A stretch of DNA of 64,000 nt, taken from contig BTVJ01000022.1 in assembly GCA_045863395.1 (NCBI GenBank), positions 1 to 64,000 on the forward strand, in the 5' to 3' direction. Position numbers and translations under genes: made by a program. The stretch comes from Myxococcales bacterium (GTDB taxonomy: Bacteria; Myxococcota_A; UBA9042; JABWCM01; BTVJ01). Each line of letters begins with the position of its first letter. Position 1 is the stretch's first letter. The notes beneath the pieces were generated by a model, which was given only the letters and a program-made list of their open reading frames with translations, ran no database searches and was not told the DNA's origin. Shown here in pieces: positions 11,835-57,532 of the stretch.

Positions 11835-12566
11835 TCAGCCGAGGACGTCGGCCATGGAGTAGAGCGCTGCCGGCTTGCCGATGACCCAGCGAGCGGCGCG
11901 CAGGGCGCCGTGGGCGAAGATGGCCCGGTCCGTGGCGCGGTGGGTAAGCTCGATGCGCTCGCTGTCGCCGAGCAGGTAGACGGTGTGCTCCCCCACCACG
12001 TCACCGCCGCGCAGCGTCTGCACTCCAATCTCCCCCGCCGGACGCTCCCCGATGAGGCCGCGACGCTCATAGCGCCCGACGTCCACCAGCGAGGCGTCCC
12101 GCGCCTGGGCGACGGCCTCGGCAAGGCGCAGGGCCGTGCCGCTCGGCGCATCCACCTTGTGGCGGTGGTGGAGCTCGACCACCTCGGCGTCCCACCCCGG
12201 ACCGAGGGCCGCCACGGCTCGCGCCACCACGTCCAGGAGCACGTTGACGCCGACGCTCATGTTGGGCGCGAGCAGGATGGGCACGTGCGTCGCGAGCTGG
12301 GTGAGCTCGCCCTTCTGCGCCGGCGTGAGGCCCGTGGTCCCTGCGACCATCGGGACCCCCCGCTCTGCGGCGAACCGCGCGTAGCCGAGGGTTGCCTCCG
12401 GGGTGGTGAAGTCCACTACGACGCCCACATCCGCGACGGCCCAGGGGTCGTCGCCCTGGTCCACGGCGCCCGCCAACACGAGGTCCGGAGACTCGGCGAC
12501 CACCCGCTGGACCGCGCGGCCCATGCGGCCGTGGGCGCCGGTGACCAGGACGCGCAGCGGCTCCAC
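11835..12566 (-). CDS. dapB: 4-hydroxy-tetrahydrodipicolinate reductase
   Basis: VTGAHGRMG, VDFTTP, GTTG, APNMSVG, EVVELHHRHKVDAPSGTA and RGGDVVGEH motifs; GTG 12566 directly after the dapA stop. Confidence 0.97.
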   Translation of the reverse strand: MEPLRVLVTGAHGRMGRAVQRVVAESPDLVLAGAVDQGDDPWAVADVGVVVDFTTPEATLGYARFAAERGVPMVAGTTGLTPAQKGELTQLATHVPILLAPNMSVGVNVLLDVVARAVAALGPGWDAEVVELHHRHKVDAPSGTALRLAEAVAQARDASLVDVGRYERRGLIGERPAGEIGVQTLRGGDVVGEHTVYLLGDSERIELTHRATDRAIFAHGALRAARWVIGKPAALYSMADVLG

Positions 12567-12567
12567 C

Positions 12568-13467
12568 TCAGGCCTCGTCCGCGCCGCGCAGGCGCAGGCC
12601 CAGCTCGGACATGACCGCCCGCAGCAGGGTGACCGTGCCCTTGGAGGCGGGCACGAGCGGCAGCCGGAGCTCGTTGCGCATGATCCCCAGCAGCCAGAGG
12701 GCCGCCTTGAGCGGGATGGGGTTGCTCTCCACGAAGAGCGCCTTGAACAGGGGCGTGAGCCGAGACTGGAGGTTGGCGGCCCCCGCCAGATCACCCTCCC
12801 GGAAGGTCGTGTGGATGGCCCTCATCTCAGCCGGCACGACGTTGGCGGCGACCGAAATCACGCCGTGGGCCCCGAGGGCGTACATCGGAAGCGACAGGGC
12901 GTCATCGCCGGAGAGCACCGCCATGCGGTCGCCCACCTGGTCCAGCACGTCCTGCACCTGGGCCAGGTTGCCACACGCCTCCTTGACCGCGACGAAGACG
13001 TCCGTGTCGGACAGCCGCGCGACGGTCTCGGGGAGCAGATTGACGCCGGTGCGCCCAGGGACGTTGTAGAGCACGATGGGGAAGTCCGCCACGCGCCGCG
13101 CCACCTCGCGATAGTGGGCCTCGAGCCCGGCCTGCGAGGGCTTGTTGTAGTATGGGGTCACGATGAGCGCGCCGTCGCAGCCGAGGCTCTTGGCCAGAGC
13201 CGTGGCGGCGACGGTCTTGGCGGTGGAGTTGGAGCCGGTGCCCGCGATGACGGGCACCTTGCCGCGCCCCTCCTCGACGGCGATCTGGATCGCGCGCTGG
13301 TACTCTTCGTCCGTAAGGGTGACCGTCTCGCCAGTCGTCCCGCAGGGTACGATGGCGTCCAGCCCCCCCTCTATGCAGTGGCGGATCAGCTTGCGGTAGG
13401 CGTCCTCGTCGAGCTGACCGTCGCGAAACGGTGTCGCGAGGGCCACCATCGTGCCATGGAGCTTCAT
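12568..13467 (-). CDS. dapA: 4-hydroxy-tetrahydrodipicolinate synthase
   Basis: ALATPF, CGTTGE, VTPYYNKP, LYNVPGRTG, AVKEA (Schiff-base Lys), SGDD and ESNPIPLK motifs; ATG 13467. Confidence 0.97.
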   Translation of the reverse strand: MKLHGTMVALATPFRDGQLDEDAYRKLIRHCIEGGLDAIVPCGTTGETVTLTDEEYQRAIQIAVEEGRGKVPVIAGTGSNSTAKTVAATALAKSLGCDGALIVTPYYNKPSQAGLEAHYREVARRVADFPIVLYNVPGRTGVNLLPETVARLSDTDVFVAVKEACGNLAQVQDVLDQVGDRMAVLSGDDALSLPMYALGAHGVISVAANVVPAEMRAIHTTFREGDLAGAANLQSRLTPLFKALFVESNPIPLKAALWLLGIMRNELRLPLVPASKGTVTLLRAVMSELGLRLRGADEA

Positions 13468-13471
13468 TGAC

Positions 13472-14161
13472 TCACCTCTGTGGTTGATCGGCTCGGCCCT
13501 TCGAAGGCTCCTTGGGGAGCGTAGGGCTGAAGCCAGGGGGGAACACGCGCACCGGCTGCTCGAAGATGTTCTCCGCATCGCGCCGGTCGCGCGCCATGTC
13601 GTACTGGCGAGACTGCTGGAGCGCCTTCTCGATGGCAAGACGCACGCGGATGGTCTCCTCCCGGTAGAGCCGGTTCTCGAGGAGCGTCGTCACCCGCGGA
13701 TCGTCGATGAGCCCGATACCCATGACCGCCCCCTCGCGCAGAGTCTCGGACTGCTCGTCGAGGAAGCTGATCAGGTCGTGGAGCACCTCGCTCTGCCACC
13801 CGGCACCCAGGGAACGCAGCGCCACTTTGCGGCGCACGTCGTCCGTGTCTCGGTCGTAGACCACCTCCCAGAGCACCTGCATGGACTGCTTGGTGGGGAA
13901 GAAGGGGAGCACCTCCAGCGCGCGGAGCTGGTAGATGCGGGGGACTCCCTTGCCGGTCGCCAGGTCGACGAGGAGCTTGTTGGTGGTGAGAGGCGGGCCC
14001 ATGCCAAGCCAGTCCGCCTTGGACGTCTCAGAGATCGGGCGGGTGAGCGCGTCCACGATGCGCTCTCGCTGAAGCATGGGGCGAGCCGTGGCTGTGACCG
14101 ACAACAAGAGCACGAGCACGGTCCCCCACAGTGCGAACGGGCGGCGCGGGCCTCGGCTCAT
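13472..14161 (-). CDS. Exported HEAT/PBS-lyase-like repeat protein
   Basis: N-terminal hydrophobic signal (LWGTVLVLLLSVTATA); helical repeats VRRKVALRSLG, LREGAVMGIG and VRLAIEKAL; packed between ffh and dapA. Confidence 0.75.
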   Translation of the reverse strand: MSRGPRRPFALWGTVLVLLLSVTATARPMLQRERIVDALTRPISETSKADWLGMGPPLTTNKLLVDLATGKGVPRIYQLRALEVLPFFPTKQSMQVLWEVVYDRDTDDVRRKVALRSLGAGWQSEVLHDLISFLDEQSETLREGAVMGIGLIDDPRVTTLLENRLYREETIRVRLAIEKALQQSRQYDMARDRRDAENIFEQPVRVFPPGFSPTLPKEPSKGRADQPQR

Positions 14162-14171
14162 GGACGGCACC

Positions 14172-15896
14172 TCACTTCTTTCGAGACTTCTTGCGGGCGG
14201 CGCGCGCCAGCTTCTCTTTCTTGCGCCGGTCCTTCTTCACGTCGGCGGACACACCCGCTGCCCCGGTCTTGCCCGCGGCCCGCTGGCCCATGCCCGCCTG
14301 GGCTCCCTGGGCGCCTTGGGCTCCTTGCATCAGGGCCGCAGCGTTCATCAGCTCGGGGGACATGGGCATCCCCGCTCGCTGCATCGCCTGCGCCTGCCGG
14401 GCCAGCGCCATCGGATCCAGCTTTCCCATACCGGGAAGGCCCGGCATCCCGGGCATTCCCGGCACGCCGCCCGCGCCACCGGGGCCGCCGCCTCCGAACA
14501 GGGACCCGAGATCCATGTTGCGGAGCTGCTTCATCTGGCGCATCTGCTTGACGCCCGGCAGGTTGCCGAGCAGGCCCGACGACTGGCCGAGCTGGCCCAT
14601 CATCTGGCGCATCCCCTTGAACCGCTCGACCAGCTCCAGAACTTCCTTGGGGGTGCGCCCCGCGCCGCGAGCGATGCGGGCCGAGCGCTTCTCGTCGATG
14701 AGGTCCGGGTTCGTGCGCTCCTGCTTGGTCATGGACTGGATCATCGCCTCGACCTTGACCAGCTCCTTGTCATCGAGGTTGACCCCTGCGGGGAGCCCGT
14801 CACCGAAGAAGGGCAGCTTCTCGAAGACGTCCTTCAGCGACCCGAGCTGCTTGATCATGCGGATCTGGTCGAGGAAGTGGGTCATGTTGAAGCGGCCGCT
14901 GAGGATGCGCTTGGCGTCCTCCTCGGCCTTGGCCTCGTCGACCACCTCCTCGAAGTCCTTCATCAGGCCGACGATGTCGCCCATGCCCAGGATGCGCGAC
15001 GCGAGGCCCTCGGGGCGGAACAGCTCCAGCTTGTCGAGCCCCTCACCCATGCCCAGGAACTTGATGGGCTTGCCCGTGACCTCCTTGATGGAGAGCGCCG
15101 CGCCGCCGCGTGCGTCGCCGTCCAGCTTGGTGAGCACGACGCCGTCGATGCCGACGCGCCGGTTGAACTCGGCGGCCGTGTGCACCACGTCCTGGCCGAT
15201 CATGGCGTCGGCCACGAAGAGAACGTTGTCGGGCTGGGTGCGGGCCTTGATGGTCTCCAGCTCCCCCATGAGCTCGTCGTCGATGGCCAGCCGCCCGGCG
15301 GTGTCGTAGATCAGCACCTGGCAGCCGTGCTGGCGCGCATAGGGCATGGCCTCGATGCACATCTCGACGGGGCTCGCGCCGGGCCGGTGATACACCGGCA
15401 TGCCCAGGCGCTCGCCGAGCACCTTGAGCTGATCGACGGCGGCGGGGCGGTAGATGTCCGCCGCGACGAGGCACACGCGCTTGCCGTGGGTCTTCTCGAT
15501 GAGGCGCGCGAGCTTGCCGGCGGTGGTCGTCTTGCCGGAGCCCTGGAGGCCGACCATCATCACCTTGGTCAGGCCCGTGGCCGCGAACCGGATGTCGTCC
15601 TCCACGGGACCGAGGAGCGCCACCAGCTCGTCCTGGCAGATCTTGATGAAGTGCTCACCCGGCGTCGCCCGAAGCTCCTTGCCGTCCTTCTGGACCTTCG
15701 TCAGCACGATCTCGCCGAGCGCCTTGTCCTTGACGCGGGCAAGGAAGGTCTTGACCACGTGGAACTCGACGTCCGCCTCGAGCAGCGACATGCGGATGTC
15801 GCGCAGCGCGTCCTCGATGTTCGACTCGCTGATCTCGCGGTAGCCCTTCAGGCGGTTGCGGGCGGTGCGAAAGCCTTTCTGAATCGTTTCGAGCAT
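14172..15896 (-). CDS. ffh: Signal recognition particle protein Ffh, 574 aa with extended Met/Gly/Gln tail
   Basis: LLEADV, GLQGSGKTTT, DIYRPAA, DTAGR, TKLDGDARGGAALS, RILGMGD and IQSMTKQER...RIARGAG motifs. Confidence 0.98.
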   Translation of the reverse strand: MLETIQKGFRTARNRLKGYREISESNIEDALRDIRMSLLEADVEFHVVKTFLARVKDKALGEIVLTKVQKDGKELRATPGEHFIKICQDELVALLGPVEDDIRFAATGLTKVMMVGLQGSGKTTTAGKLARLIEKTHGKRVCLVAADIYRPAAVDQLKVLGERLGMPVYHRPGASPVEMCIEAMPYARQHGCQVLIYDTAGRLAIDDELMGELETIKARTQPDNVLFVADAMIGQDVVHTAAEFNRRVGIDGVVLTKLDGDARGGAALSIKEVTGKPIKFLGMGEGLDKLELFRPEGLASRILGMGDIVGLMKDFEEVVDEAKAEEDAKRILSGRFNMTHFLDQIRMIKQLGSLKDVFEKLPFFGDGLPAGVNLDDKELVKVEAMIQSMTKQERTNPDLIDEKRSARIARGAGRTPKEVLELVERFKGMRQMMGQLGQSSGLLGNLPGVKQMRQMKQLRNMDLGSLFGGGGPGGAGGVPGMPGMPGLPGMGKLDPMALARQAQAMQRAGMPMSPELMNAAALMQGAQGAQGAQAGMGQRAAGKTGAAGVSADVKKDRRKKEKLARAARKKSRKK

Positions 15897-16621: not shown

Positions 16622-17042
16622 GGGCGACCTCCTGAGCGGGTCCACGGGCCGCACGAGGCGCGGCCGCCGGTCTCTCCGGGTGTACGTCGATCCGCCGAGG
16701 CGTGTCAAGGAATGTCGGGCCCACTGCCGGTGACCGGCTGAGACGTGCGGCACGCGACGCCCCCCGCACTCCGACCTGTGGGACGCCCTCCGCTACGCCT
16801 CCACCGCCTCCCTGCGTGTCCATGATGTGCTCTTCGAGTCCCATGGGGCGCACACTATCTCCGATTCGCCGGGTTGGGGCCGGAAGAACCCTTGTGTCGG
16901 GCAACGTCCGGCAGGACCCTTCCCAACCTCGCTCGGGGGCCGCCCGGCGCGTGCCGCCCTTCCCTGTTCGGGGACGGGCGCCGTCTCCCCCTGGAAGGAA
17001 CCCCGGCGCCCGTGGTAGATGCCCAGGGCACACGGAGGTCTC

Positions 17043-18989
17043 ATGCGCAGCTCACTCATCGCGCTCCCCGCGCTCCTCGCTCTGGCTGCCTGCGCGGCGG
17101 ATTCAGACGGAGCCGCGCCCAACGACACGGCAGCCGCCCAGGACAGCGCTGGAGCGGACGTCCCGGTCGACGCGAGTCCGGGTGTCGATGTCGTTGACGA
17201 GGACGGCGAGGACGGCGCAGGCGCTCCCGGGGATGCCTCCGCGGACGCGTCCCCGGACGCAGCCGCGGACGCAGACCAGGACGTCGCCCCCCCGTGCACG
17301 CCGGGCAGCCTCCAGTGCGACGGCAAGGTGGTCCAGCTCTGCCAGGGGGGCGTCTGGATCAGCGGCCAGGTGTGCAGCGGCGAGAGCACCTGCGCAGACG
17401 GCCAGTGCGTCGAGGCAGCGGACTGCGAGCCGGGCACGGTGCTCGGCTGCGCCGCCATCGACGCCCGCAAGGTGTGCAGCGAGGACGGCACGGCCGCGCT
17501 CAAGGTGCCTTGCCCGCCAGGAGAGAAGTGCCTGGACGGGGTGTGCGCGGTGCTCGCGTGCCTGCCCGGCACCAGCTCCTGCGCCTCCCTCAGCGCCACC
17601 CGAGCGTGCGCTGCGGACGGCAGCGCCTGGCTCGACCCGGTGGAGTGCGCCCAGGGCACGAGCTGCATCGGCGGCAAGTGCCTCTCCGCCTGTGAGGGGG
17701 ACCTGAAGTACAACACCAACGTCGGCTGTCGCTTCTGGTCGCTGGACCTGGGGCAGTGGGAGGTGAAGCCCGGCCAGCTCAACGTGGACAAGTCCGTGGA
17801 TCCCATCCCCCACGCGGTCGTGGTGGCCAACCCGGGAACCCTTCCGGCCACCGTCACCTTCTCGTCGGAGGCGGACGTGACGTTCCAGATCGCGGACCCG
17901 GTGGTCCCCGGCGGCGCCGCCCGCGCCTTCGAGATGCCCGTCATGAGCCTTCAGAGCTCAGCCGTCTCCGACCTGAGCATCCGCTTCGTCACGGACCGCC
18001 CGGTGATCGCCGCCCAGTTCAACCCGCTGAACAACGTGTTCGCCTTCAGCAACGATGGGTCCCTGCTGCTGCCCGAGCCCGCCTTCGGCACCGAGTACAT
18101 CGCCGCGACGCTGCCGAGCGTCATGCCACCACCCATCATCAAGTCGCCGACCGTGTGGGGCTACGTCACGGTCGCGGCCACGGCGCCCGGCGAGACCCAG
18201 GTCACCGTCGTCCCGCGCTGCCCCACGGAGGCGGGTCCGGAGCTGCCGAGCTTCCCTGCCGGGGAGCCCGCTGAGTTCACTCTCCAGCAGTGGCAGGTGC
18301 TGAACCTCAACGGCCTCGCGGACACCAACGGGACCAACGACCTGACCGGTACCCTCGTGACCACGGACAAGCCGGCCGCTGCCTTCAGCGGGCACCAGTG
18401 CATGTCCATCAGCTCCAACTGCGACCACCTGGAGACCCAGCTCCTGCCGGTCTCCTCCTGGGGCAAGTCGTACATCGCGGTGTCCACGGGCAACAAGGCC
18501 GACATCTTCCGCGTCATCTCGGGCGCCGACGACAACCTGATCACGGCGATACCGCCCGTCCCGGGAGTCTCGGGAGTCACCCTGCAGAAGGGACAGTGGG
18601 TCGAGTCCAAGGCTGCCCATGACTTTCAGGTGGCGGGCACTGGCCCCCTCCAGGTCGTCCAGTACCTGACCGTGGACGACCCGTCCATGAGCATCCTGGT
18701 CCCGACGGACCGCTTCCTGGACGACTACCCGGTCCTAGTGCCCGCGGGCTTCGCGAACAACAGCCTCATCGTGATTCGCAAGCCGGGCGCGCTGGTGACC
18801 CTCGACCAGATCCCCATCTCGGGGTCCACCGCGACCGTCGGCGCCGGCCAGTGGGAGCGCGTCATCGTGTGGGTCGGGGCGGGCGTGCACCGCGTAGAGA
18901 GTGACGCCCCCTTCGGGCTCATGCTCTACGGGTGGGACACGGCGGTGAGCTACTTGGTGCCGGGCGGGATGGCGACGGGGGCGGACTAG
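17043..18989 (+). CDS. Lipoprotein with Cys-rich repeats and IgGFc-binding domain, ~648 aa
   Basis: Lipobox LALAA-C; Cys-rich repeats; NVGCRFWSLDL, AQFNPL, SNDGSLLLP, DLTGTLVTTDKP, CDHLETQLLPVSSWGKSY and FGLMLYGW...SYLVPGG motifs. Confidence 0.88.
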   Translation: MRSSLIALPALLALAACAADSDGAAPNDTAAAQDSAGADVPVDASPGVDVVDEDGEDGAGAPGDASADASPDAAADADQDVAPPCTPGSLQCDGKVVQLCQGGVWISGQVCSGESTCADGQCVEAADCEPGTVLGCAAIDARKVCSEDGTAALKVPCPPGEKCLDGVCAVLACLPGTSSCASLSATRACAADGSAWLDPVECAQGTSCIGGKCLSACEGDLKYNTNVGCRFWSLDLGQWEVKPGQLNVDKSVDPIPHAVVVANPGTLPATVTFSSEADVTFQIADPVVPGGAARAFEMPVMSLQSSAVSDLSIRFVTDRPVIAAQFNPLNNVFAFSNDGSLLLPEPAFGTEYIAATLPSVMPPPIIKSPTVWGYVTVAATAPGETQVTVVPRCPTEAGPELPSFPAGEPAEFTLQQWQVLNLNGLADTNGTNDLTGTLVTTDKPAAAFSGHQCMSISSNCDHLETQLLPVSSWGKSYIAVSTGNKADIFRVISGADDNLITAIPPVPGVSGVTLQKGQWVESKAAHDFQVAGTGPLQVVQYLTVDDPSMSILVPTDRFLDDYPVLVPAGFANNSLIVIRKPGALVTLDQIPISGSTATVGAGQWERVIVWVGAGVHRVESDAPFGLMLYGWDTAVSYLVPGGMATGAD

Positions 18990-19083: not shown

Positions 19084-20151
<1,068 letters not shown>

Positions 20152-20351
20152 GGAGGGACCTCGCGCCACAGACAGCTGGTGTCCGTGCAGCACGACGGGG
20201 TCACTGACAGGAAAACACGGCTCGCTGCGAGAGTCAAGCGCGGTCACTGGCCTGAGGGTCGCGAAGGCTCCGCAGAGGTACGGATCACGAGGGGGGTGCG
20301 GTGATATAAGCGGAGAGCGGACCAGGCAAGGGGCACGGAGCCGCAACGCCG

Positions 20352-47311
<26,960 letters not shown>

Positions 47312-47315
<4 letters not shown>

Positions 47316-50300
47316 TGGCCGGCGACCGCGTCAGCCTGCGCCTTGCTCCATGCCTGAGCGTGGATCATCGTGATGATCCCCTCCTCGTAGCCGGAGCCCG
47401 TGATCCATGCAGCGTCGGGGTGGTAGAGCCCGTAACGGTCGGCCAGGTAGACCTCGACCGAGGCCCTGTCCTCGTCGCCCAGGGCCCTGTCGTAGATCAG
47501 CAGCTCCGCGAGATCGCCCGTCAGGTGCCCCGCGACTCCGGCGCCTACCCGCGATCCGTCGCGCCAGGCCAGGGGCGGCAGGGTCGCCGACCCCGTCGCG
47601 CCGTCGAGGCCGTGCTGCCGGAGGGCCACCGTCCCATCGATGGCGTGAACCACCGAGAGCACCCGCCAGGAGGTCCCGCCAAGCAGGGCGGCGCCGTCGG
47701 CAGCCACGTTGCCACTGCGATAGCGGAGCGTGGTCGTCGTCCCCTTGCGGGACAGGGAGATCGGCGCGGCACCGCCGCTCGTCGCCAGCTCCACGATGTG
47801 ACCCCACCGGTCACCGGCGGCCGGTCGCAGCACGACGAAAGCGGAGACTCCCCGATCGAAGTCCACGAAGCCGGGCGGCAGCTCCAGGGCATCGTCCAAG
47901 CCATCGAAGCGCACCGCGGGGGCGCCGCCGATGCCCACCTCGCTCGGGAGCACGAGGGGCTGGGCCCCCTCCACCGTCTGGCTCGCGTCGGCCGGCGAGG
48001 GCACGGGGGCGAGATCCGCCCACAGGGCCACGGCCCCGTCGGGCCCCGCGACCACCTGGTCGCCGCGCAGCCAGACCGATACGCCGGCGCCGGGGATCCC
48101 CGCGTCCGACGCGACTCCGCCAAACGCCACGAAGGCGTCGGCCTCGGCCTGGGACCAGCGCTCCGCATGAATCCTGGCAACGACGTCCTCCGCGTACCCG
48201 TCGACCCACGTGGCCGCCGGGTGGTAGAGGCCGTGCCGGTCGGCGAGCCAGGCGGCGACGGCCTGGTGCTCCGCAGCGGAGAGGGCGCGGGTGTAGACCA
48301 GCAGCTCGGACAGCTCTCCGACGAAGGGGGGGCCGCCAATGGCGTTCTCGGTGCGCAGGACGGCGACCGGGAGCGGCATGGCGCTCGCCTTGAGCACCTG
48401 CCCGTCGCGGGACAGGGTGACGCCCGACGCACCGTGGACCGCGGAGAGCACCTGCCAGCGACCAGGGAGCAGGCCCTTCGGGCCCGTGGCGAAGGCGGCC
48501 CCAGCGCCGTAGCGGACCGAGCCCGTCGCGCCGTCCGCGCCCAGGGACACCATCTGCTGCCCCGCCGCGTTGCCGAGGCGGAGAAGGGGCGCGCCAGGCG
48601 CCGGGCGGGCCGGGCGGGCGACGGTGAAGACCGTGACGCCCTGGTCGAGGCCCGCGAAACCGGCAGGGAGGGGCAGCACGTCGTCCACGCCGTCGAAGGA
48701 CACGGCGGGGTGGTCGCCCCCGAGCAGCACGGGGCGCCGCGAAGAGTCAGCCTGAGCCGCGTCCATGCCGGCTGGAGAGCGGTCCTCCCAGCCCTGGACG
48801 GCGCCCCCGGCCGCATCCACGCCGGTGGTGGCGTCCAGCCACAGGGCGAGCCCAGGCGCGGGGATTGGCAGGTCCGGGTTCTGCGCCATGAACTCCCCGA
48901 GCGCCACCGTCTCGGCCTTGCCGAGCCCGTAGGTGTGCGCCGCGTCCACCGCCTCGGCGGCGAGGTCCTGGTCAAGCAGCCACGTAGCGTCCGGGTGGTA
49001 CACTCCGTGCCGGTCCGCAAGGTAGACCTCCACCGCGTGGCGCTCGTCGGCGCCCAGGGCCCGATCCCAGACGAGCAGCTCGGCGATGTCCCCCGCGAAG
49101 GCCGGGAGCCCCGCGACCGGCGACAGGGCGATGCGGCTGCCGTCTCGCACGGCCGCCCTCGGCACCGCCACGGCGCCCGAGGCCGTGACCTCGCCGCCAC
49201 GGACGATCTGGGTCTGGCCGTCCGGCTGCTGGATGGCGCCGAGCAGCCGCAGCTCAGGCACGGCGAGCCCCCCGTCGCCAGTGAGGGCCGTATCGCCGGA
49301 CCGGAGCACGACGCCAGGGCCGGTCGCATCTCGCGTCAGGGCCAGCCTGCTCGCGGCGGTCGCCCCCGTCAGGTCGAGCAGCGTCCCCCAGCGGGCCGGC
49401 CCCGAAGCGCGCGCAACGGCGTAGGCGGTGAAGCCGCCGTCGAGGTGGGCCATGCCGGCGGGCAGGCGCAGCCCGTCGTTGAGGCCATCGAAGCGGACGA
49501 CGGAGGTGCCCCCCTGGGAGGCCGCGGTCGGCCGAGCCGTCGCGTCCGTCTGGGTGGCGTCATCGGCCCAGGGGTCGGCCCCCTGGTCCGCCCAGGCGGC
49601 AACGACGCCTTCGGTCGCCGTCACCCCCTCGTCGGCGCGCAGCCACAGCCGCAGCGCGATCCCGGGGACTGGGGAGGCCGGGTGGGCCGCCGTCCAGGCG
49701 ACCAGCGCGTCGGCCTGCGCCGCGCTCCAGCGGCGGGCGTGGATGGTCGCCTCCACCGTGGGCGGGTAGGCGGCGATCCACGACGCGCTCGGGTGGTAGA
49801 GCCCGTGGCGCTCGGCCAGGAAGAGCTCCACGTCGACGCGCTCCGCCTCGGTCAGCGCCCGGGTGTAGACCAGCAGCTCGGCGACCGCGCCGCCCAGTGG
49901 AGCTCCCGCCCCGCCGCAGATCAGGTTGGCCGTGCGGGTAGCCACGCTTGGGAGCCGGACGTTGCCGATGCCCGTGACGGCGCCATCACGCCGGAGCGTC
50001 GCGGCCTCGCCCGGCACATGGACCACGGACAGGGCCTGGAGCTCCAGCAGGCGGGCGCCATGAGAGGCCTCCGCCATACGCTTTGCCACCTGATAGCGGA
50101 GGCCATCCGCGCTGCCCGCGCCCCCCAGGGTCACGCGGTCGGCCCCGGCGCCGCCCAGATCCAGGAGCAGGCCGGCGCCGGCGTCCCGGTCTGGTCTGAC
50201 CACCGCGAACACCGTCAGCCCTTGTGAGAAGTCCGCGTAGCCGCTGCCAAGGACGAGCGCGTCGTCCTGGCCGTCGCAGCGCACCAGCGCCGCGCCGTAG

Positions 50301-53300
50301 ACGGGGTCTGCGATGAGCTGCGGCTGGAGCCCCGCCGTCCCCTGCGCCGCGCCCGCGCCTTGCGCCGAGCGGTCGGCCCAGGCCTGCACGCGGCCCTCGG
50401 CGTCCGTCGTGACGCCCTGGGAGGCATCGAGCCACAGAGCGAGCCCCGCGAGGAGCGGCGCCGGCTTCGACACGTCGACGGCGATGCTCACCTGGTCGTT
50501 GCCCGGCTGCGCGTCCTGGAATCCAGGCCCCAGCGCGAGGGTCACCGTCCAGGCGCCAGCTCGCGGTGGCGTCCACGTCGCCTTCAGGTGCAGGGTGCCG
50601 TTCAGGTAGAACCAGGTGGTCGGCGCGACGACGTGCGTCCCGAGGCCGTCGGTGGCGCGCCAGGTGACCGGCAGGCCGTAGTAGGAGTCGTTGCCGCCGA
50701 CCGCGCCCGTCAGGGTGACGGTGCCGCCCACCTCCACGTGGTTCGGGCTCGCCATGACCGACGCCGCGAGGACCGCCGCATCGAACGGGTCACCGCTCAA
50801 GCCGCCGGCCCCCAGCGCCCCGAGGGGCGGGCCGCCCAGGGGCACCTGATCCGTGGTGCCCGTGCCCGTGACGCCACCGCCGGTGCCGCTCCCCACCGGG
50901 CCCACGCCGGGGACTGGCGTCCCCGGGTGCACGACCCATGGCGCCGAGGCAGCGCCGTCCATGAACGACACGACGGCGGGGGCGCCGTTCGGCCCGGTGT
51001 AGGGCGGCGCCGCCACCATGGGCGCCGGCGAGCCAGCGCCGCAGTCCACGAGCACCACCTGCCGCTTCGTCACGTCCTGCTCATCGCCCGCCGAAGCCGT
51101 GACCGTCAGGTCCAGCAAGGCCCCCACCTGCTGGGGCATGGGAACGTCCAGGCGCCAGGCGCCATTGCGATCCGCGCGCCCCTCGCCGCTGGACAGGGGG
51201 GCCCCGGCCGACGCCAGGGACCAGGAGACCTGCGCCCCCTCCGCCGCCACGTCGTGGCACCACTGCGCGCCGTCGGACAGGCCCCATGACGAGCGGCCAC
51301 CCGCCGACAGCGTTGCGCCAGCGCACACCTTGCGCGCCTCGGCGGCGGCGGTGCCCAACGACAGCCACTCGGGCGACGCAGCGCCGAGCAGCACGCCCAC
51401 GCTGGCGCCATTGTTGAGCTCGTTGGGCTCGGGCAGCTCCCCGGCCGCATCGACGGTCGCCACCAGCGCGAAGGCGCCGAGGGCCAGCGCAGAGTCCGTG
51501 AGATCAAGCCCGAGGTGAAGAGGGGTCACGCCCGCGTCCAGGGCCGTCTCGACCGTCGCGACCACCTTGTCGACGCCGCAGCCCACCGCGCGCACGTCGA
51601 CCCGCACCGGGGCCACCGTCGGCGCCGTGCCCGTGTTCTCCACCGTCACGATGGCCGCGACCGGCACGCCCGCCGCGTCGCGCTCGAGCGTGAGGCCGGA
51701 GACCAGCAGGTCGTCCGCCCCGATGACGAGCACGGCGGCGGTGCCGATGACGGAGTCGCCGAGCTTGTCCGTTGCGCGGAACAGGAAGGAGTCGGGGCCC
51801 ATGTACCCCGGGTCCGGGACGTAGACGAGCTGCTGGCCGGCGGTGACGAAGGCGTCGCCGTGCGCCGGCGCCAGCTCGATGGTGAACCAGTGGGCGTCCC
51901 CCTCGTCCGCGTCGACCACGGTCGGGGTGACGGGCGCGCTCGGCGTGTCCCGCTGGGTCACGATCTCGGCGCTGGCGGAGCTGGGCGCCTCGTTGGGCGT
52001 ATCCGCGGGAACGACCTCGATGATCGCGCTACCCGAGGTGCTCGCCTTGCCGTCCGAAGCGTCGAAGTAGAGGGTATAGACGCCGAGCTGGTTCTCGCCG
52101 GGGGTCCAGGTCAGGACGGCCGTCCCGTTGCCCGCGTCTGCGAAGGACGCGCCCGCGGGCAGCGGCGTCGCCGCGATGGCGGGCGTCGTGCCGTCCGGGT
52201 CGGTGGCCGTGACCACGTACTCCAGGGTCTCGCCCACGCGGATGCTGCGGCTCGGGGTCGGGCCGAGGACCGGAGCCGCGTTGTCGGCCACCACCTGGCC
52301 CATGGTCAGGGTGTAGGACAGCCCGAGCGGGTTGCCCGTGTCGAACACGTTTATCTTATATAGATAGGACTGGCTGAGCTTCTGCCACTCGCGGGACGCC
52401 CACGCGTTGCGGGAGGACAGCACCTTCCCGTCGCTGCGCACGGCCTTGACGACGTCCTGGGTGCCAAAGAAGGGGTCCGCGAGCTTCAGGTACGAGAAGC
52501 CGGCCGTCGGAGGCACGGTGACCGTCACCGCGCCACCGGCGAGGGAGATGGCAGAGGCGCTCGACACGTCGAGGACCGCCGTGTCCACCAGCTCAGACTC
52601 GTAGACCTTCAGCGCCGTGCCGTCCTGCGCCAGGAAGTCGACGATGGCGTCCCGCCCGGGCAGGTCGACCTGGATGTCCCGGACCAGGGTGTGGGTGTTG
52701 ACCTCCTCGAGCAGCGAGGTCAGCGCCCCGCCCAGGTCGTCCGAGTGGGTGAAGGTGGCGCTGAACTCGATGAACTTGCCCTGGAGCGTGGCGGTCATGA
52801 TCCACTTGGCGATGCGCGCCTCGTTGGCGGGCACGGTCCCGAAGTCCACGAGCAGGCTCGGCGTGGACGGCTTGCCATGCACCTCGCTGCCGATGATCTG
52901 GAACGCGATGAGCAGCCCCAGCTCGTTCTCGACGATCTTGGGCTGGCTGGACTCGATGGCCAGCTTGTTCGCCGCGCCATAGCCCTTGTTGGCGACACGC
53001 ACGCCCAGAGGGAACGGCTCGGGGGGCTCGATGGGGTCGGTGTACGGGTTGTCGCCATGCACCTCGTAGGGCAGGAAGTAGTCCAGGAAGAGCTTGGGCA
53101 TGGGCTTGACGTAGATGCTGTCCGGGACGACCGCCACTTCGCTGAGCTCCCCGCCGATGCGATAGCTCACGTTGGCGCCCACGAGGTAGAGGGTGCCCTC
53201 CTTGGCGGGCCCCGCCGCCCCCGGCGCCGGGATGATCAGCCAATGGATCTCGGCGGCGGTCTGGGGCGCGATGGTGCCCGCTCCCGCCACGTCGCCGATG

Positions 53301-53692
53301 CCCTCCATGGAGTCGAGCACGATGAAGAAGCTCGCCTGCGTGTCGTTGGGGTCGGAGGTGGCGAGCACGGGCTCACCCGCGGCGTTCTGGAACACCACGG
53401 AGACCGCCACGTCGTCGACCGCCAGGCTGGTCAGGCCGTTGTTGATGCGCATGCGCGCATCGAAGGCCTGCCGCTCCAGCGTCACCTCCTGCTCGATCTC
53501 GATGTAGACCTTGGCGCACACCTGAGCGGACGCGCTGGTGGTCCAGAGCGAGGTCGCGAGGAGCACCAGGCTCGTGAGTCCCGCCGCTCGCCATGCCACG
53601 GGGACGCGGTAGCGTGGTCGCCGCCCCTCGACAACGCCGAGCGTGGCAGATCCCCGGGGCCCCGCAACAGACAACGGACTCGAGTCCATCAT
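47312..53692 (-). CDS. Large secreted protein (~2126 aa): uncharacterised N-domain, Ig-like and CARDB-like domains, four LamG/concanavalin-like repeats
   Basis: ATG 53692 lies 8 nt after the upstream stop, with GAGG RBS. Signal ...[24 protein letters not shown]; He_PIG-like (ATDPDG...LPAGASF...LTWTP) and cadherin/tandem-95-like ([21 protein letters not shown]) domains; CARDB-like ([10 protein letters not shown]); four LWLxA...WxDxS...FDGxDD...ELLVYxRAL repeats (~50450-47420). Confidence 0.88.
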
Positions 53693-53700
53693 GACAAACC

Positions 53701-55251
53701 TCACGGCCCGCAAGCCGCGCCACAGAGGCCCTCGGCCTCGGCGGCGCACAGCGCGTCCCACTCGCCGATGCAGCACCAGGGGTCGGCGCCACATACACAG
53801 TCCTGGATCGTGGAGTCGGCGCAGCCGAGCCCACCATGATCGTCGCAGCAGCTCCCCTCGCAGGGCCCGCAGTCGGCGCCACAAGAGACGCAGTCCTCGT
53901 CCCCGTCACACGCGCCATCTCCGCACGACGGCGGGCAGACCCCACAGTCGGCGGCGCAGCTCGCGCAGGACTCCCCAAGGGTGCAGCTCCCGTCCCCGCA
54001 GACGTCGGTGCAGGTGAGGCCGCATCCGATGGCCTCCTCGACGCAGAGGACGTCCCACGCCGTGGCGCAGCAGAAGGGATCGATGGAGCAGACGCAGCCG
54101 GCGACGCTGCCGTCCCCGCAGCCCGGCTCCTCGGCCGGCGCGCAGCAGTCGCCGGTGCAGGGGCCGCAGTCCGCTGGGCAGCCCTGGCAGGTCTCCGCCC
54201 CGCCGCAGGTACCGTCCCCGCAGCCGGCGCAGGCGCCGCAGTCGGACGGGCACGTGTCGCAACCCTCGCTGCCGTTGCACGCGCCGTCGCCGCACGCCGG
54301 GCAGGCTCCGCAGTCGGCAGGGCAGAGGGCGCAGGTCTCGCCGCCCTCGCAGGCCCCGTCGCCGCACTCGGGGCCGCAGCCGCCACACGCCACGGCCTCG
54401 TCGACGCACGCTGCGTCCCAGGCGATGGAGCAGCAGAAGCCGTCGGCGGCGCAGACGCAGGCAGTGATGTCCGGGTCGTCGCAGCCGGGGGGCCCCTCCG
54501 CGCAGCAGTCGCCCTCGCAGTCGCCACAATCCGCAGGGCAGGAGAGGCAGCCCTCGTCCAGGTCGCACTGGCCGTCGCCGCAGCCGGGGCAGAGACCGCA
54601 GTCCTGGGGACAGGTGCCGCAGGTCTCGCCAGGCACGCATGCGCCGTCACCACAAAGGCCCGGGCAGTCCGCGCCGCAGAACAGGGCGGCCTGCTCGACG
54701 CACAGGGCGTCCCAGCCGGTCGTACAGCAGAAGGCGTCCGTCGCGCATACGCAGTCGGCCACCGCCGCGTCGTTGCAGGAGGGGCGGTCGTGGCCCTCGC
54801 AGCAGCCCTCGGTGCAGTCGACGGTCGGGTCCTTGGGCTTGCAGTCGTCGACGTCAGGTACGCCGTCGTCGTCGTCGTCGGGGTCACAGGCGTCGATGGT
54901 GCCGTCGCCGTCGTTGTCGAGCGCTTGGGAGAAGGGCTCCTTCAAGGCGAGCAGGATCAGCGCCTGGACGTCGATGACATTGCGGACGCCGTCGCAGTTG
55001 AGGTCCGCCTCCGCCTGGGTCACCTTGAGGCACGCGGGCGTGGGGGTCCCGCCGGCGTTGGAGAGGACGAGCAGGATCATGCACTGCACGTCCACGACGT
55101 TGGTCAGCTCGTCGTCGTTGATGTCGCCCGGAGGCACCAGGACCGCCGAGGACAGCGGTCGCGGCACAAGGACGAGCAGGGCGAACAGTAGCAGGAACGC
55201 GCACGTGCCGCGTGAGGCTCGGGGCGCGCCCTGGGGGAGCGGTAAGCTCAT
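53701..55251 (-). CDS. Secreted dockerin-like + TSP3 + Cys-rich repeat protein, 516 aa
   Basis: Hydrophobic signal (AFLLLFALLVLVP); duplicated F-hand motifs GDINDDELTNVVDVQCMILLVL and ADLNCDGVRNVIDVQALILLAL; DNDGDGTIDACDPDDDDDGVPD; repeated CGDGxCxxxExCxxCPxDCG and four CVCxxDx(F/W)CCxxxWDxxC units. Confidence 0.82.
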   Translation of the reverse strand: MSLPLPQGAPRASRGTCAFLLLFALLVLVPRPLSSAVLVPPGDINDDELTNVVDVQCMILLVLSNAGGTPTPACLKVTQAEADLNCDGVRNVIDVQALILLALKEPFSQALDNDGDGTIDACDPDDDDDGVPDVDDCKPKDPTVDCTEGCCEGHDRPSCNDAAVADCVCATDAFCCTTGWDALCVEQAALFCGADCPGLCGDGACVPGETCGTCPQDCGLCPGCGDGQCDLDEGCLSCPADCGDCEGDCCAEGPPGCDDPDITACVCAADGFCCSIAWDAACVDEAVACGGCGPECGDGACEGGETCALCPADCGACPACGDGACNGSEGCDTCPSDCGACAGCGDGTCGGAETCQGCPADCGPCTGDCCAPAEEPGCGDGSVAGCVCSIDPFCCATAWDVLCVEEAIGCGLTCTDVCGDGSCTLGESCASCAADCGVCPPSCGDGACDGDEDCVSCGADCGPCEGSCCDDHGGLGCADSTIQDCVCGADPWCCIGEWDALCAAEAEGLCGAACGP

Positions 55252-55561
55252 CGATCCCGTCCAGGTGTGACCGCAGCGCGCAAGACCCCTCCTGGATCAT
55301 CGCGCAGCCGCTCGTCGGGCAATGCAGCCCAGCCTATGCCGGGGCCCGGGCGCATGCAATCACTATTTCCATTGGACGAGGGCCGCCGCGGCCTGACGCG
55401 ACGGAGCCGTGCGTAACCCACACTGGGCCTGCCCCCTCTTCGGTGACAGGCACGCCGGGGAAGCTGTGTCGGCGAGAATTCGCGGGTTTCCATCCGCGGC
55501 AGGGGGGCGTATGCTCGCGCGCGTTCGACGGTTGGCCAAGACCACCACAGGAGACGAGAAC

Positions 55562-57532
55562 ATGGCAAGACACTGTGCGTGCGCCCTCCTGGCGCTTGTG
55601 CTCGCCGCCGCGTGCGGCGACGACTCCGTCACTCCGAGCGCGGGTGGCGACGACTCGGGCGGCACACCGTCCTTCGACAGCGGCCAGCTCCCGTCCGTGG
55701 ACGCCGGGCCCACGGACACCGGCACGCCCGACACCGGAGGGCCCGACGTGGCCGAGGTGCCCGACGTCGTACCGGACGCCGGCAAGCCCGACGTCAGCGC
55801 CCCCGTCGACACGGGACCGGCCGACACGGGCCCGCTCCAGGGGATCTGCCTGCTCAACAACTGCAAGTCCGACCAGGAGTGCGCGGGCTGCACGGCGGGC
55901 CGCACCACCTGCAAGATCGACGAGGGCCGGTGCATCGCCTGCGACCCGACCACGCAGACCGGCTGCAAGGACGGCGAGACCTGCACGAGCTTCGGCATCT
56001 GCGCGCCCGTCGTGCAGACCTGCGCGACGGACGGCGGCGGCAACCCCCTCGTGTCCTGCGAGAAGAACTCGGACTGCGCGGCGTGCAGTCCGCAGCACCA
56101 GGTCTGCGATCCGGCGGACGGCCAGTGCAAGGCGTGCACCGCCACGAACACGAGCCACTGCCTCCAGACGCAGATCTGCGTCGAGGGGCGCTGCGCCGAC
56201 AAGTGCCCGAAGGCCTGCCTCGTCGATGGCGACTGCCAGTGGTGCGGCACGGCGGAGAAGCCGGCCAAGGGGTGCTTCCAGCACCAGTGCGCCCAGTGCT
56301 CGGAGACCTGGCCCTGCCCCCAGGGTCAGGTGTGCGAGGCGGGCAACTGCATCAAGCCCTGCGGAATCTATGGCTCGCCCGGAGCGTGCCAGACTGCGGC
56401 CGAGTGTGCCTGGTGTGGGGGCAACGAGGGCGATCCCGGGGCCAAGGACGCCTGGGACTGCAAGTTCCCAATCAACGGTGCCACATATGGCGTCTGCACG
56501 GCCAAGGCAGCGGGGTGCAGCGATCTCGGCGCCGGTGTGGCCGTGCTGCCGGAGCCCTGGTCACAGGGGACGAACCTCTGCTCCGGCGACGGTGACTGCG
56601 CTGGGGTCGGGATCCAGTACAACGTGGGCAAGCTGGTCAAGGACCTGATCGGCTCGGACACGCTGGACCTGGGCTTCGCGGAGCTGACGGTCCAGGACGC
56701 CAACGTCGAGTACGGCATGAACGCCTGCGCCTCGGTCAACATCCTCGGAGACATCGACTGCGGCGTCTGCGTGCCCTGCCGCGTGGACCAGGACTGCAAG
56801 CCCATCGGGGTCGACAAGCTGGCCTTCGACCTCTTCAAGGGGGAGGCGCTGGCGCAGATCGCGGCGGCCTTCCTGCTGGACCTCTTGTACGGCAAGGAGG
56901 CGGACCAGAACCTCAACTTCCGGTGCCAGTCCGTGGCGGCCGGCTACGGCGTATGCATCCCGTGCGGCAACCCCCTCAAGGCCTGCGGCAAGAGCGACGA
57001 GCCGCCTCCAGGCAGCGGGAAGTGCGAGCACGAGGTGTGCGCCACGGGGACCCCGCTGGACCCGAGCTGCGGCGCCTGCGCCAAGGCCGTGTGCAGCGCG
57101 GACGCGTACTGCTGCACGACGGAGTGGGACAACGTGTGCGTCAAGGCCGTGGATCAGCTCTGCACGACGACCTGCGGCGGCGGCGGCGGCAGCAAGTGCG
57201 ATCACGGCCCCTGCGAGCAGGGCGGACCCATGAGCCCGCAGTGCAGCCCCTGCGTCGAGGTCGTGTGCAAGGAGGACCCGTACTGCTGCAACCAGGCGTC
57301 AGGGGCATGGGACAACCTCTGCGTCGACCGCGCGGCGAGCAAGGCCGAGTGCGCGAGCCAGTGCCAGGGCGCCTGCGCCCATGACGAGTGCAGCGCTGGC
57401 GCGGCGCTGGTCTCGAGCTGCTCGACCTGCGCGACCAAGGTGTGCGCCGGCGACCCCTTCTGCTGCTCCACGGAGTGGGACTCGTGGTGCGTCGACGGCG
57501 CCAAGGGGGTCGTGGAGTGCGGCTGCCAGTAG
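55562..57532 (+). CDS. Very Cys-rich lipoprotein, ~656 aa
   Basis: ATG 55562 after AGGAG; lipobox VLAAA-C; Asp/Thr/Gly/Pro linker; many Cys modules; three C-terminal CxHxxCxxG...VCxxDx(Y/F)CC...WDxxCV repeats. Confidence 0.85.
   Translation: MARHCACALLALVLAAACGDDSVTPSAGGDDSGGTPSFDSGQLPSVDAGPTDTGTPDTGGPDVAEVPDVVPDAGKPDVSAPVDTGPADTGPLQGICLLNNCKSDQECAGCTAGRTTCKIDEGRCIACDPTTQTGCKDGETCTSFGICAPVVQTCATDGGGNPLVSCEKNSDCAACSPQHQVCDPADGQCKACTATNTSHCLQTQICVEGRCADKCPKACLVDGDCQWCGTAEKPAKGCFQHQCAQCSETWPCPQGQVCEAGNCIKPCGIYGSPGACQTAAECAWCGGNEGDPGAKDAWDCKFPINGATYGVCTAKAAGCSDLGAGVAVLPEPWSQGTNLCSGDGDCAGVGIQYNVGKLVKDLIGSDTLDLGFAELTVQDANVEYGMNACASVNILGDIDCGVCVPCRVDQDCKPIGVDKLAFDLFKGEALAQIAAAFLLDLLYGKEADQNLNFRCQSVAAGYGVCIPCGNPLKACGKSDEPPPGSGKCEHEVCATGTPLDPSCGACAKAVCSADAYCCTTEWDNVCVKAVDQLCTTTCGGGGGSKCDHGPCEQGGPMSPQCSPCVEVVCKEDPYCCNQASGAWDNLCVDRAASKAECASQCQGACAHDECSAGAALVSSCSTCATKVCAGDPFCCSTEWDSWCVDGAKGVVECGCQ

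Follow-up and report, generated by a model that had tools for sequence, protein, structure and literature searches.

The locus described here raises the question of whether two large secreted proteins encoded by overlapping genes act separately or as parts of a single assembly. It lies in a window of 64,000 nucleotides (the whole stretch of DNA analyzed, positions 1 to 64,000 of contig BTVJ01000022.1, assembly GCA_045863395.1) from a Myxococcales bacterium, in which the gene for a LamG-bearing protein, hereafter the partner, overlaps by ATGA the gene for a giant Rhs protein (Table 1). An initial annotation had proposed that the N-terminal domain of the partner and a segment of the giant protein are the split halves of one module. 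Our comparison of relatives and our structure predictions suggest that this is likely the case: the N-terminal domain of the partner (B) and a module ahead of the Rhs shell of the giant protein (A) would be the halves of one beta-sandwich scaffold that re-forms as a two-chain clamp, holding the partner onto the giant protein.

A and B form one chain in many relatives

A stands upstream of B in one reading frame at 24 of the 80 genome loci that were kept out of 152 matching genome stretches. This bears out the proposal that the two segments are halves of one module, as well as its statement that their motifs occur in this order within single large CARDB-type proteins, given that, of 9 fused proteins scanned, 8 gave CARDB matches (well above the Pfam cut-off in 7). 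By record title, the fused forms belong to cyanobacteria, Verrucomicrobiota, Planctomycetota, Methylobacterium and others. At 50 of the 80 loci, B is N-terminal (L071 is counted here, though it is a broken fused gene), and A was found within the flank at 18 of those 50. Among 80 metagenome loci, which were ranked by likeness to the window, B is N-terminal in 76 and fused in none. In the split form, B begins a signal-peptide protein of its own, encoded beside the A gene. L063 and L071 were rejected as true splits, both being broken fused genes without a leader.

The B domain is widespread. At least 880 relatives were found at E values up to 0.001 among 7999 candidates of 1138-3623 residues, and 939 among proteins of 728-2075 residues, spanning about ten phyla by record titles. 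B begins within the first 111 residues in 120 of the 120 relatives listed, mostly right behind a hydrophobic leader, and the C-terminal domains that follow it differ widely, often including dockerin, cohesin or immunoglobulin-like (Ig) stalks.

The split systems take three forms, namely A joined to Rhs with a separate B; A, Rhs and B each in a gene of its own (L028, L029, L035, L038, L039); and A followed by a cargo and a Hint domain, again with a separate B (genomes G111, G346, G568, G591). In the three-gene form, for which L107 may be listed as well, a short tail bearing Cys closes the A protein, and the Rhs gene has its own leader. At L097:12003-16133, L189:4867-8001, L190:4649-7999 and L191:771-3998, we observed an A gene with helical cargo and Hint, its Hint domain with Cys first and H/Q-Q/E-R/K-C at the end, followed by a signal-peptide B gene.

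Fused proteins carry an insert of 85-416 residues, mostly Cys-rich, between the hairpin that ends A and the start of B. No Hint or Rhs match was found in the 24 fused inserts, and Rhs occurred at 0 of 24 fused loci versus 42 of 126 loci with N-terminal B. Of these inserts (examples are L061:9137-9997 and L068:3485-4411), 15 of 24 have a helical Cys-rich part and then a conserved RWNR helical domain, and 5 of 24 are of a beta type with a CC motif; seven inserts scanned against Pfam gave no match. A subtilase domain stands at the end of four fused proteins.

Our quick, unrooted trees separate the B sequences of fused proteins from those of split ones and are compatible with fission as well as with fusion. 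L052 was considered as an independent split, and this was dropped: the sequence clusters with fused L050 in one tree (77 rows, support 82) but sits basally on the fused side, with no clear placement, in the other (34 rows).

Table 1. Features of the partner and giant genes in the 64,000-nucleotide window
Feature	Positions	Strand	Remarks
Partner gene, 2126 residues from ATG 53692 (open reading frame from 53884)	47312..53692	-	leader, B domain, Ig/cadherin-like domains, four LamG-like repeats
Signal-peptide-like leader, AxA-type, hydrophobic	53525..53692	-	ends SASA/Q; called from sequence, homologue leaders end at same point
B domain, mature residues 1-410, three beta subdomains	52295..53524	-	no Pfam, NCBIfam or PDB sequence match
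Acceptor strand, partner residues 1-31, with Cys3	53432..53524	-	antiparallel to donor strand in model; complex prediction
Second acceptor strand, partner residues 247-261	52742..52786	-	beta in fused model, not with B alone
Giant Rhs gene, 8987 residues	20352..47315	-	start overlaps partner stop (ATGA)
First part of A, residues 7135-7349: a PapD/ASH-like Ig domain, then a transthyretin-like one (CarboxypepD_reg)	25269..25913	-	
Donor strand, giant residues 7350-7380 (LVTIEW...VPA)	25176..25268	-	interface residues 216-246 of complex prediction
Second Ig domain of A, residues 7381-7458, with C7396	24942..25175	-	
Gly/Pro hinge, residues 7466-7567	24615..24920	-	insertion in variable-length linker
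Conserved Cys hairpin (C7569, C7583, C7603)	24507..24611	-	turn Cys C7583 (24569-24567) touches partner in model
Rhs/YD shell and Rhs-associated core	20853..24332	-	
C-terminal tip, 166 residues, Cys-rich, beta-patterned	20355..20852	-	no known family; 34% identical to C10 paralogue tip

A strand of the giant protein is predicted to complete the partner's B domain

The giant protein consists of propeller-like domains and Cys-rich repeats, Fn3 domains, the A module (25913-24507, minus strand), the Rhs shell and core, and the tip. Within A the order is Ig, transthyretin-like (TTR), motif strand, second Ig, a linker of variable length and the Cys hairpin. The TTR-like domain before the YD shell matches PF13620 above the cut-off, and in the fused model described below it matched TTR folds at Z 12-13.5 over 80-90 residues with a root-mean-square deviation of 1.4-1.6 Å. 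The partner begins, directly past its leader at 53524, with a 23-residue motif that opens QVCAKV. The Cys-bearing, beta-rich start of about 400 residues ascribed to it in the initial annotation was found at about 410 residues and mostly beta (AlphaFold2 model of B folded alone, predicted local distance difference test [pLDDT] 93.8), with a single Cys (C3) in residues 1-415.

Prediction of a complex between giant residues 7135-7605 and partner residues 1-415 gave an ipSAE of 0.89 (0.89, 0.90 and 0.89 by run), compared to 0.00 for the best of three controls. Among solved complexes, 116 of 157 attain the mark for a complex, as do 2 of 215 mismatched pairs, a calibration that is only rough for our own alignments. 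Contacts agree by at least 78% between the runs, and the pLDDT of the partner is at least 88. The interface is centered on the donor strand against the two acceptor strands of the partner, which are exactly the two motifs singled out beforehand; on the giant side this is the 33-residue stretch that opens VTIEWEVV (25265-25167, residues 7351-7383). The best pairs (giant residue in construct numbering/partner residue) are 220/25, 232/14 and 236/10, together with 234/258 and 240/251, so that the donor is antiparallel to both partner strands, and in this register its end lies opposite the first residue of B. Giant residues 7581-7583 (447-449 in the construct), which include the turn of the hairpin, also touch the partner in the model.

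The one-chain relatives give the same picture of the strands. In the AlphaFold2 model of fused L072 (pLDDT 79, predicted TM-score 0.64), long continuous strands occur at the donor, at B 1-31 and at B 249-260; when B is folded alone, its first strand is broken and residues 251-271 are not beta. Re-formation in trans, as had been proposed by strand complementation or disulfide, is thus predicted for the strand, and a disulfide is plausible with a Cys that lies after the hinge rather than before it. The clip that had been proposed for the base of the Rhs cage is predicted to lie on the stalk module, about 280 residues before the shell.

A minimal one-chain form, in which TTR leads directly to B with no second Ig, hairpin, cargo or Cys3, is encoded at L099:9994-15381. 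In genome G192, the TTR domain is connected by 37 residues to B position 4, in the lack of the second Ig, the hairpin and Cys3, and this junction fits one strand and a turn, as in the model geometry. The G192 protein looks like a re-fusion, since its halves score higher with split-type profiles.

Conservation of the donor strand and the cysteines

In the split rows of our alignments, donor strand conservation is 0.78 versus 0.56 for columns outside the interface, and that of the B interface is 0.74 versus 0.61. Among 295 overlapping 31-residue windows of A, the donor ranks fifth by conservation in split relatives. Rows dropped from the alignments were L046 from A4, L071 from the A set, and from A2 the duplicates L014 and L069 and the short or truncated L037, L040 and L044.

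The partner's Cys3 is Cys in 76 of 77 aligned rows, the remaining row having a gap, and C7569, C7583 and C7603, which follow the hinge, are Cys in 43 of 43 aligned relatives (rows of this A alignment were trimmed to the hairpin end so that the hairpin aligned). The usual hairpin has three or five Cys, an odd count that leaves one of them unpaired. The cysteines before the hinge to which the earlier proposal had pointed do exist, as C7396 and C7463. At each of these positions, however, a Cys was present in 1 of 43 relatives only, and we rejected both as disulfide partners of Cys3; perhaps they pair with each other.

We considered whether the two genes might be co-inherited remnants of a one-chain protein, the products of which no longer bind. 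Two genomes that show B without a detected A, and one B of genome G305 without its Cys, would fit such decay. We regard it as highly improbable, given that conservation of the donor strand is higher among split rows (0.78) than among fused ones (0.69), that A and B co-occur in 8 of 8 genomes of one phylum (see below), and that the window genes are coupled by ATGA.

A proposed clamp and the points that weigh against it

Under the clamp reading, the 31-residue donor strand of the giant protein would run antiparallel along partner strand 1-31, filling the gap beside residues 247-261, and it is predicted to span the first two Ig-like subdomains of the partner. The Cys hairpin before the Rhs shell would fold back over the Gly/Pro hinge, where C7583 probably bonds Cys3; by this disulfide, the beginning of the Rhs module would be returned across the hinge to the scaffold. 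The insertion site of the scaffold may be the turn that links the donor strand with the first strand of B, where one-chain relatives have a variable Cys-rich insert and the split ones either the Rhs cage with its tip or a cargo with Hint. With such Rhs or Hint cargo in the turn, B would have to be a separate secreted chain, and splitting may be the price of keeping a self-cleaving module there. Both chains would be exported by Sec, translationally coupled, and assemble 1:1 after export, and in this complex both the Ig/LamG arm of the partner and the propeller/Fn3 arm of the giant would be attached to the Rhs module at its base.

Several observations weigh against this reading or against its parts. 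A positive complex test is common for split-gene halves in any case, and since fused sequences made up 24 of 43 and 24 of 77 rows of our alignments, the score may reflect the one-chain fold. Covariation between the chains is weak (effective number of sequences about 30; mean Z of predicted pairs 0.60 versus 0.26, p about 0.04). The C7583-Cys3 bond itself is not reported in the complex output, the hairpins of L029 and L035 have six Cys, an even count, and the four Hint-type A genes are without the three-Cys hairpin pattern, though their B keeps its Cys. The resemblance of the G192 junction to the donor profile is not significant, with 28 of 200 shuffles scoring as high. No A was found in G118 (96% complete), where B lies on an 11.5-kb contig, or in G308, where B lies near the end of a short contig. 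As to the toxin role discussed below, no toxin family was matched by the window tip, and the gene directly behind the giant one is not of the small, immunity-like kind.

A second reading of the predicted strand donation is that it joins separate molecules into a polymer or a lattice at the surface, as in a pilus or an S-layer, instead of forming a 1:1 clamp. Donor-strand exchange builds pili, and the fold matches of our model include pilin, PapD-like and S-layer chains. In addition, the motif QPKIVENE of B (52945-52922) is nearly all invariant in 77 B domains, fused and split alike, and sits outside the predicted A interface; the clamp leaves this surface unexplained, and it may be a second binding surface of B, separate from that for A. 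We consider a lattice improbable, however, since each chain of a split system is only donor or only acceptor, so that the strand alone cannot chain, and since the fold matches are generic Ig (Z below 8 for B).

Co-occurrence and paralogous pairs

The co-occurrence of the two segments that the initial annotation anticipated was found, in that they are fused, adjacent or present in the same genomes. A and B occur in the same 8 of 301 genomes of G305's phylum (G305 included). In the window's phylum, B is present in 4 of 301 genomes and strong A matches in 3 of those 4 and nowhere else, while four weak A hits (E about 1e-9) cover the TTR domain only; these figures are counts and not a test, kin genomes not being independent. 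Of ten genomes whose B locus had no A within 10 kb, nine had A elsewhere, seven of them on a B-bearing contig.

The genome of the window contains a second partner and giant A-Rhs pair at G000:C10:41203-69001 (L081, L082), the donor strand of which is identical to that of the window pair at 24 of 31 positions. Between the two C10 genes lies a transglutaminase-like gene with C-H-D motifs and an ATGA overlap. G305:C1:1204095-1268859 (L101-L104) has one B gene with one full and three 5'-truncated A-Rhs genes, and also a transglutaminase-like gene by motif pattern. These A-Rhs genes have different tips and small downstream genes and stand among open reading frames resembling insertion sequences. 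The partner had been proposed to be a swappable targeting subunit. Partner C termini do vary widely, but given this arrangement of one B gene and several A-Rhs genes, the Rhs side swaps too, and the partner may serve in targeting or in anchoring.

The same locus bears on an alternative that shares the clamp and differs only in the role of the partner, namely that the partner is a base or anchor holding interchangeable A-Rhs chains at the producer surface, with the N-terminal arm of the giant doing the targeting. One B gene precedes four A-Rhs genes there, and G305 has 6 B versus 9 A overall. Dockerin, cohesin or Ig stalks are frequent at partner C termini, the L007 partner ends in a hydrophobic tail and adjoins an Rce1-like gene, and about 4900 residues of the giant consist of propeller-like, Cys-rich and fibrinogen-like domains. 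The window partner, however, ends in LamG repeats with no hydrophobic tail, and the three additional A-Rhs genes of G305 lack their 5' ends, which would suit silent cassettes. We regard the anchor role as a serious candidate, if somewhat less probable than its opposite.

It is unlikely, in our estimation, that the neighboring transglutaminase-like protein joins or processes the chains, with strand pairing serving only to position them. A Transglut_core gene occurs at 70 of 126 loci with N-terminal B versus 0 of 24 fused loci, and the C10 gene described above has the C, H and D motifs. On the other hand, the window locus has no such gene, 56 of the 126 loci show none (many being short contigs), no substrate residue was identified, and the enzyme gene may simply go with the split lineage, whatever the mechanism. 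A rhodanese-like gene has a similar distribution (49 of 126 versus 0 of 24), and the window pair has neither gene. The rhodanese-like proteins, of about 300 residues and many with CxxC or a Cys tail, stand beside B (L002, L007, L013, L028, L036, L041, L047 and others), and a relative is encoded at G000:C4:7093-8058. Speculatively, these proteins might help form the inter-chain disulfide of the proposed clamp.

A putative carrier of variable Rhs tips

By analogy with its relatives, the likeliest purpose of the clamp would be to hold a polymorphic Rhs effector and present it at cell contact, and the giant protein is probably a toxin carrier. Among 15 tips scanned from relatives, L038 gave an LHH match above the cut-off, and L029 (Ntox44), L107 (PLA2-like) and L015 (CHAP) gave matches below it; in relatives, LHH occurs as PT-HINT+LHH. 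The 15 tips are mostly unrelated to one another. The window tip has no Pfam match and its Atlas matches are unnamed; its family has 12 representatives, three of them on other A-Rhs proteins. Truncated tip cassettes, of which G305 has three, were not found in the window. The Rhs part itself was well supported (repeats PF05593, E 2e-66; core TIGR03696, 73 bits against a cut-off of 32.5). The autoproteolytic Rhs core carries the motif DPxGL, and here GRYLSADP and the 12-residue stretch after it, ahead of the tip, include DTRGL in this place, so that the Asp is kept and the Pro lost.

We also considered a broader possibility, which at present appears doubtful, that the junction of A and B is a widespread plug-and-socket display in which any A chain plugs, through its strand of about 31 residues and a disulfide, into any B of the cell, so that effector and adhesin arms are assembled combinatorially. 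In that case, the window and C10 pairs would cross-assemble, the beta-type fused inserts would be homologues of the window Rhs tip, and the junction would be a natural covalent pair of peptide tag and catcher. Homology of the window tip to the fused inserts was not established. A two-sequence profile found nothing, and with an insert profile the tip ranked second among 1000 shuffles (E 0.19). With a deeper tip profile, L079 was the one insert of 24 to match (E 0.003, against 1.3 for the best shuffle); the hhalign probability was 12% and rose to 33% after the addition of two tips that were picked by eye and that the tip profile itself did not match. The helical inserts gave no match to the 15 tips.

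Relation to known systems

The window system resembles the Sec/type II secretion system-exported Rhs polymorphic toxins (Zhang et al. 2012, PMC3482391) in its signal-peptide-like leader, Rhs repeats and core, and its related loci share with them variable tips, Hint domains and truncated cassettes. It differs, as far as the sections of that paper drawn on here go, in that a dedicated partner gene completes a domain of the Rhs protein; Table 1 of PMC3482391 gives no neighborhood gene for the Sec route. The window tip, moreover, lacks a known toxin fold, nor is an immunity gene evident.

Bacterial teneurin-like proteins (PMC6425310) have, like the giant, an Ig/Fn3 stalk, a TTR-like domain, a YD shell and a variable tip. 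In the portions of PMC6425310 used here, they are encoded by one gene, not two, and have an FN-plug and NHL propeller between TTR and shell. The 312 residues in this place in the giant, with no room for six blades, comprise instead the donor strand, one Ig, the hinge of about 100 residues, the Cys hairpin and a Gly linker. TcB-TcC of the ABC (Tc) toxin complexes is likewise an Rhs system split over two assembling chains; according to the same portions, both Tc chains build the shell, whereas the partner described here has no YD repeats or SpvB match and is predicted to bind upstream of the shell. The VARTIG hypervariable Ig loci of Thermococcales (PMC8416519) offer an analogy only, having large CARDB/Ig surface proteins with variable neighbors, and no Rhs-clamping partner is described in the parts of that paper considered.

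Chaperone-usher pili use donor-strand complementation, and split CnaB2 is the basis of SpyTag/SpyCatcher; in both, as predicted here, a beta strand of one chain completes the Ig-like sandwich of another, and it may be covalently locked. Unlike in pilins, the donor proposed here is not an N-terminal extension but internal to a chain of ~9000 residues, is about 31 residues long and spans two subdomains, and the giant has no B domain and so is not also an acceptor. No chaperone or usher was found among the window open reading frames scanned. Compared with split CnaB2, the proposed lock is a disulfide, and there is no sequence match. A sequence search found no solved relative from which the structure model could have taken over the interface.

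We found no description of the A/B module in the literature searched, supplements excepted (those of PMC3482391 could list such neighborhoods), nor in the parts of PMC8416519 and bioRxiv 10.1101/2023.11.21.568195 considered. The predicted arrangement would thus apparently be an undescribed two-chain split-domain clamp on Sec-type Rhs systems. If correct, B would be an unannotated secreted domain family with a specific proposed role, Sec-type Rhs systems would gain a partner subunit, and the self-cleaving Rhs or Hint module would offer a reason for splitting a domain around it. To our knowledge, how Sec-type Rhs systems are presented to target cells is poorly understood. The 31-residue donor strand with its Cys lock could also serve as a protein-ligation tool.

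Other features of the partner and the window

B gave no match in Pfam, NCBIfam or PDB sequences at E values up to 1, and its top three Atlas matches (0.93-0.95) are unnamed clusters. Fold searches returned generic Ig matches only, with a best Z of 7.9 for B alone and low TM-scores, and such an absence of a fold match does not by itself show a new fold. The Pfam matches of the whole partner are LamG, Big_9, Cadherin_5 and He_PIG only; the count of LamG-like repeats was read off the translation, and the leader was called from sequence and homologue alignment, not by a signal-peptide predictor.

The gene after the giant (19084-20196, minus strand) encodes a secreted protein of ~370 residues that has no Pfam match. 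Its linker is acidic and of Pro/Asp type, and its hydrophobic C-terminal tail, GGC followed by a hydrophobic stretch and RRR, resembles what we take to be a myxobacterial sorting signal. Cys-rich secreted proteins at 53701-55251 (minus strand) and 55409-57532 (plus strand) flank the 5' end of the partner gene, and the former, which abuts it, has a weak dockerin-like match below the cut-off. Farther along, 11835-15896 and 17019-18989 contain the housekeeping genes dapB, dapA and SRP54 (ffh) and a gene for an IgGFc-binding-domain protein.

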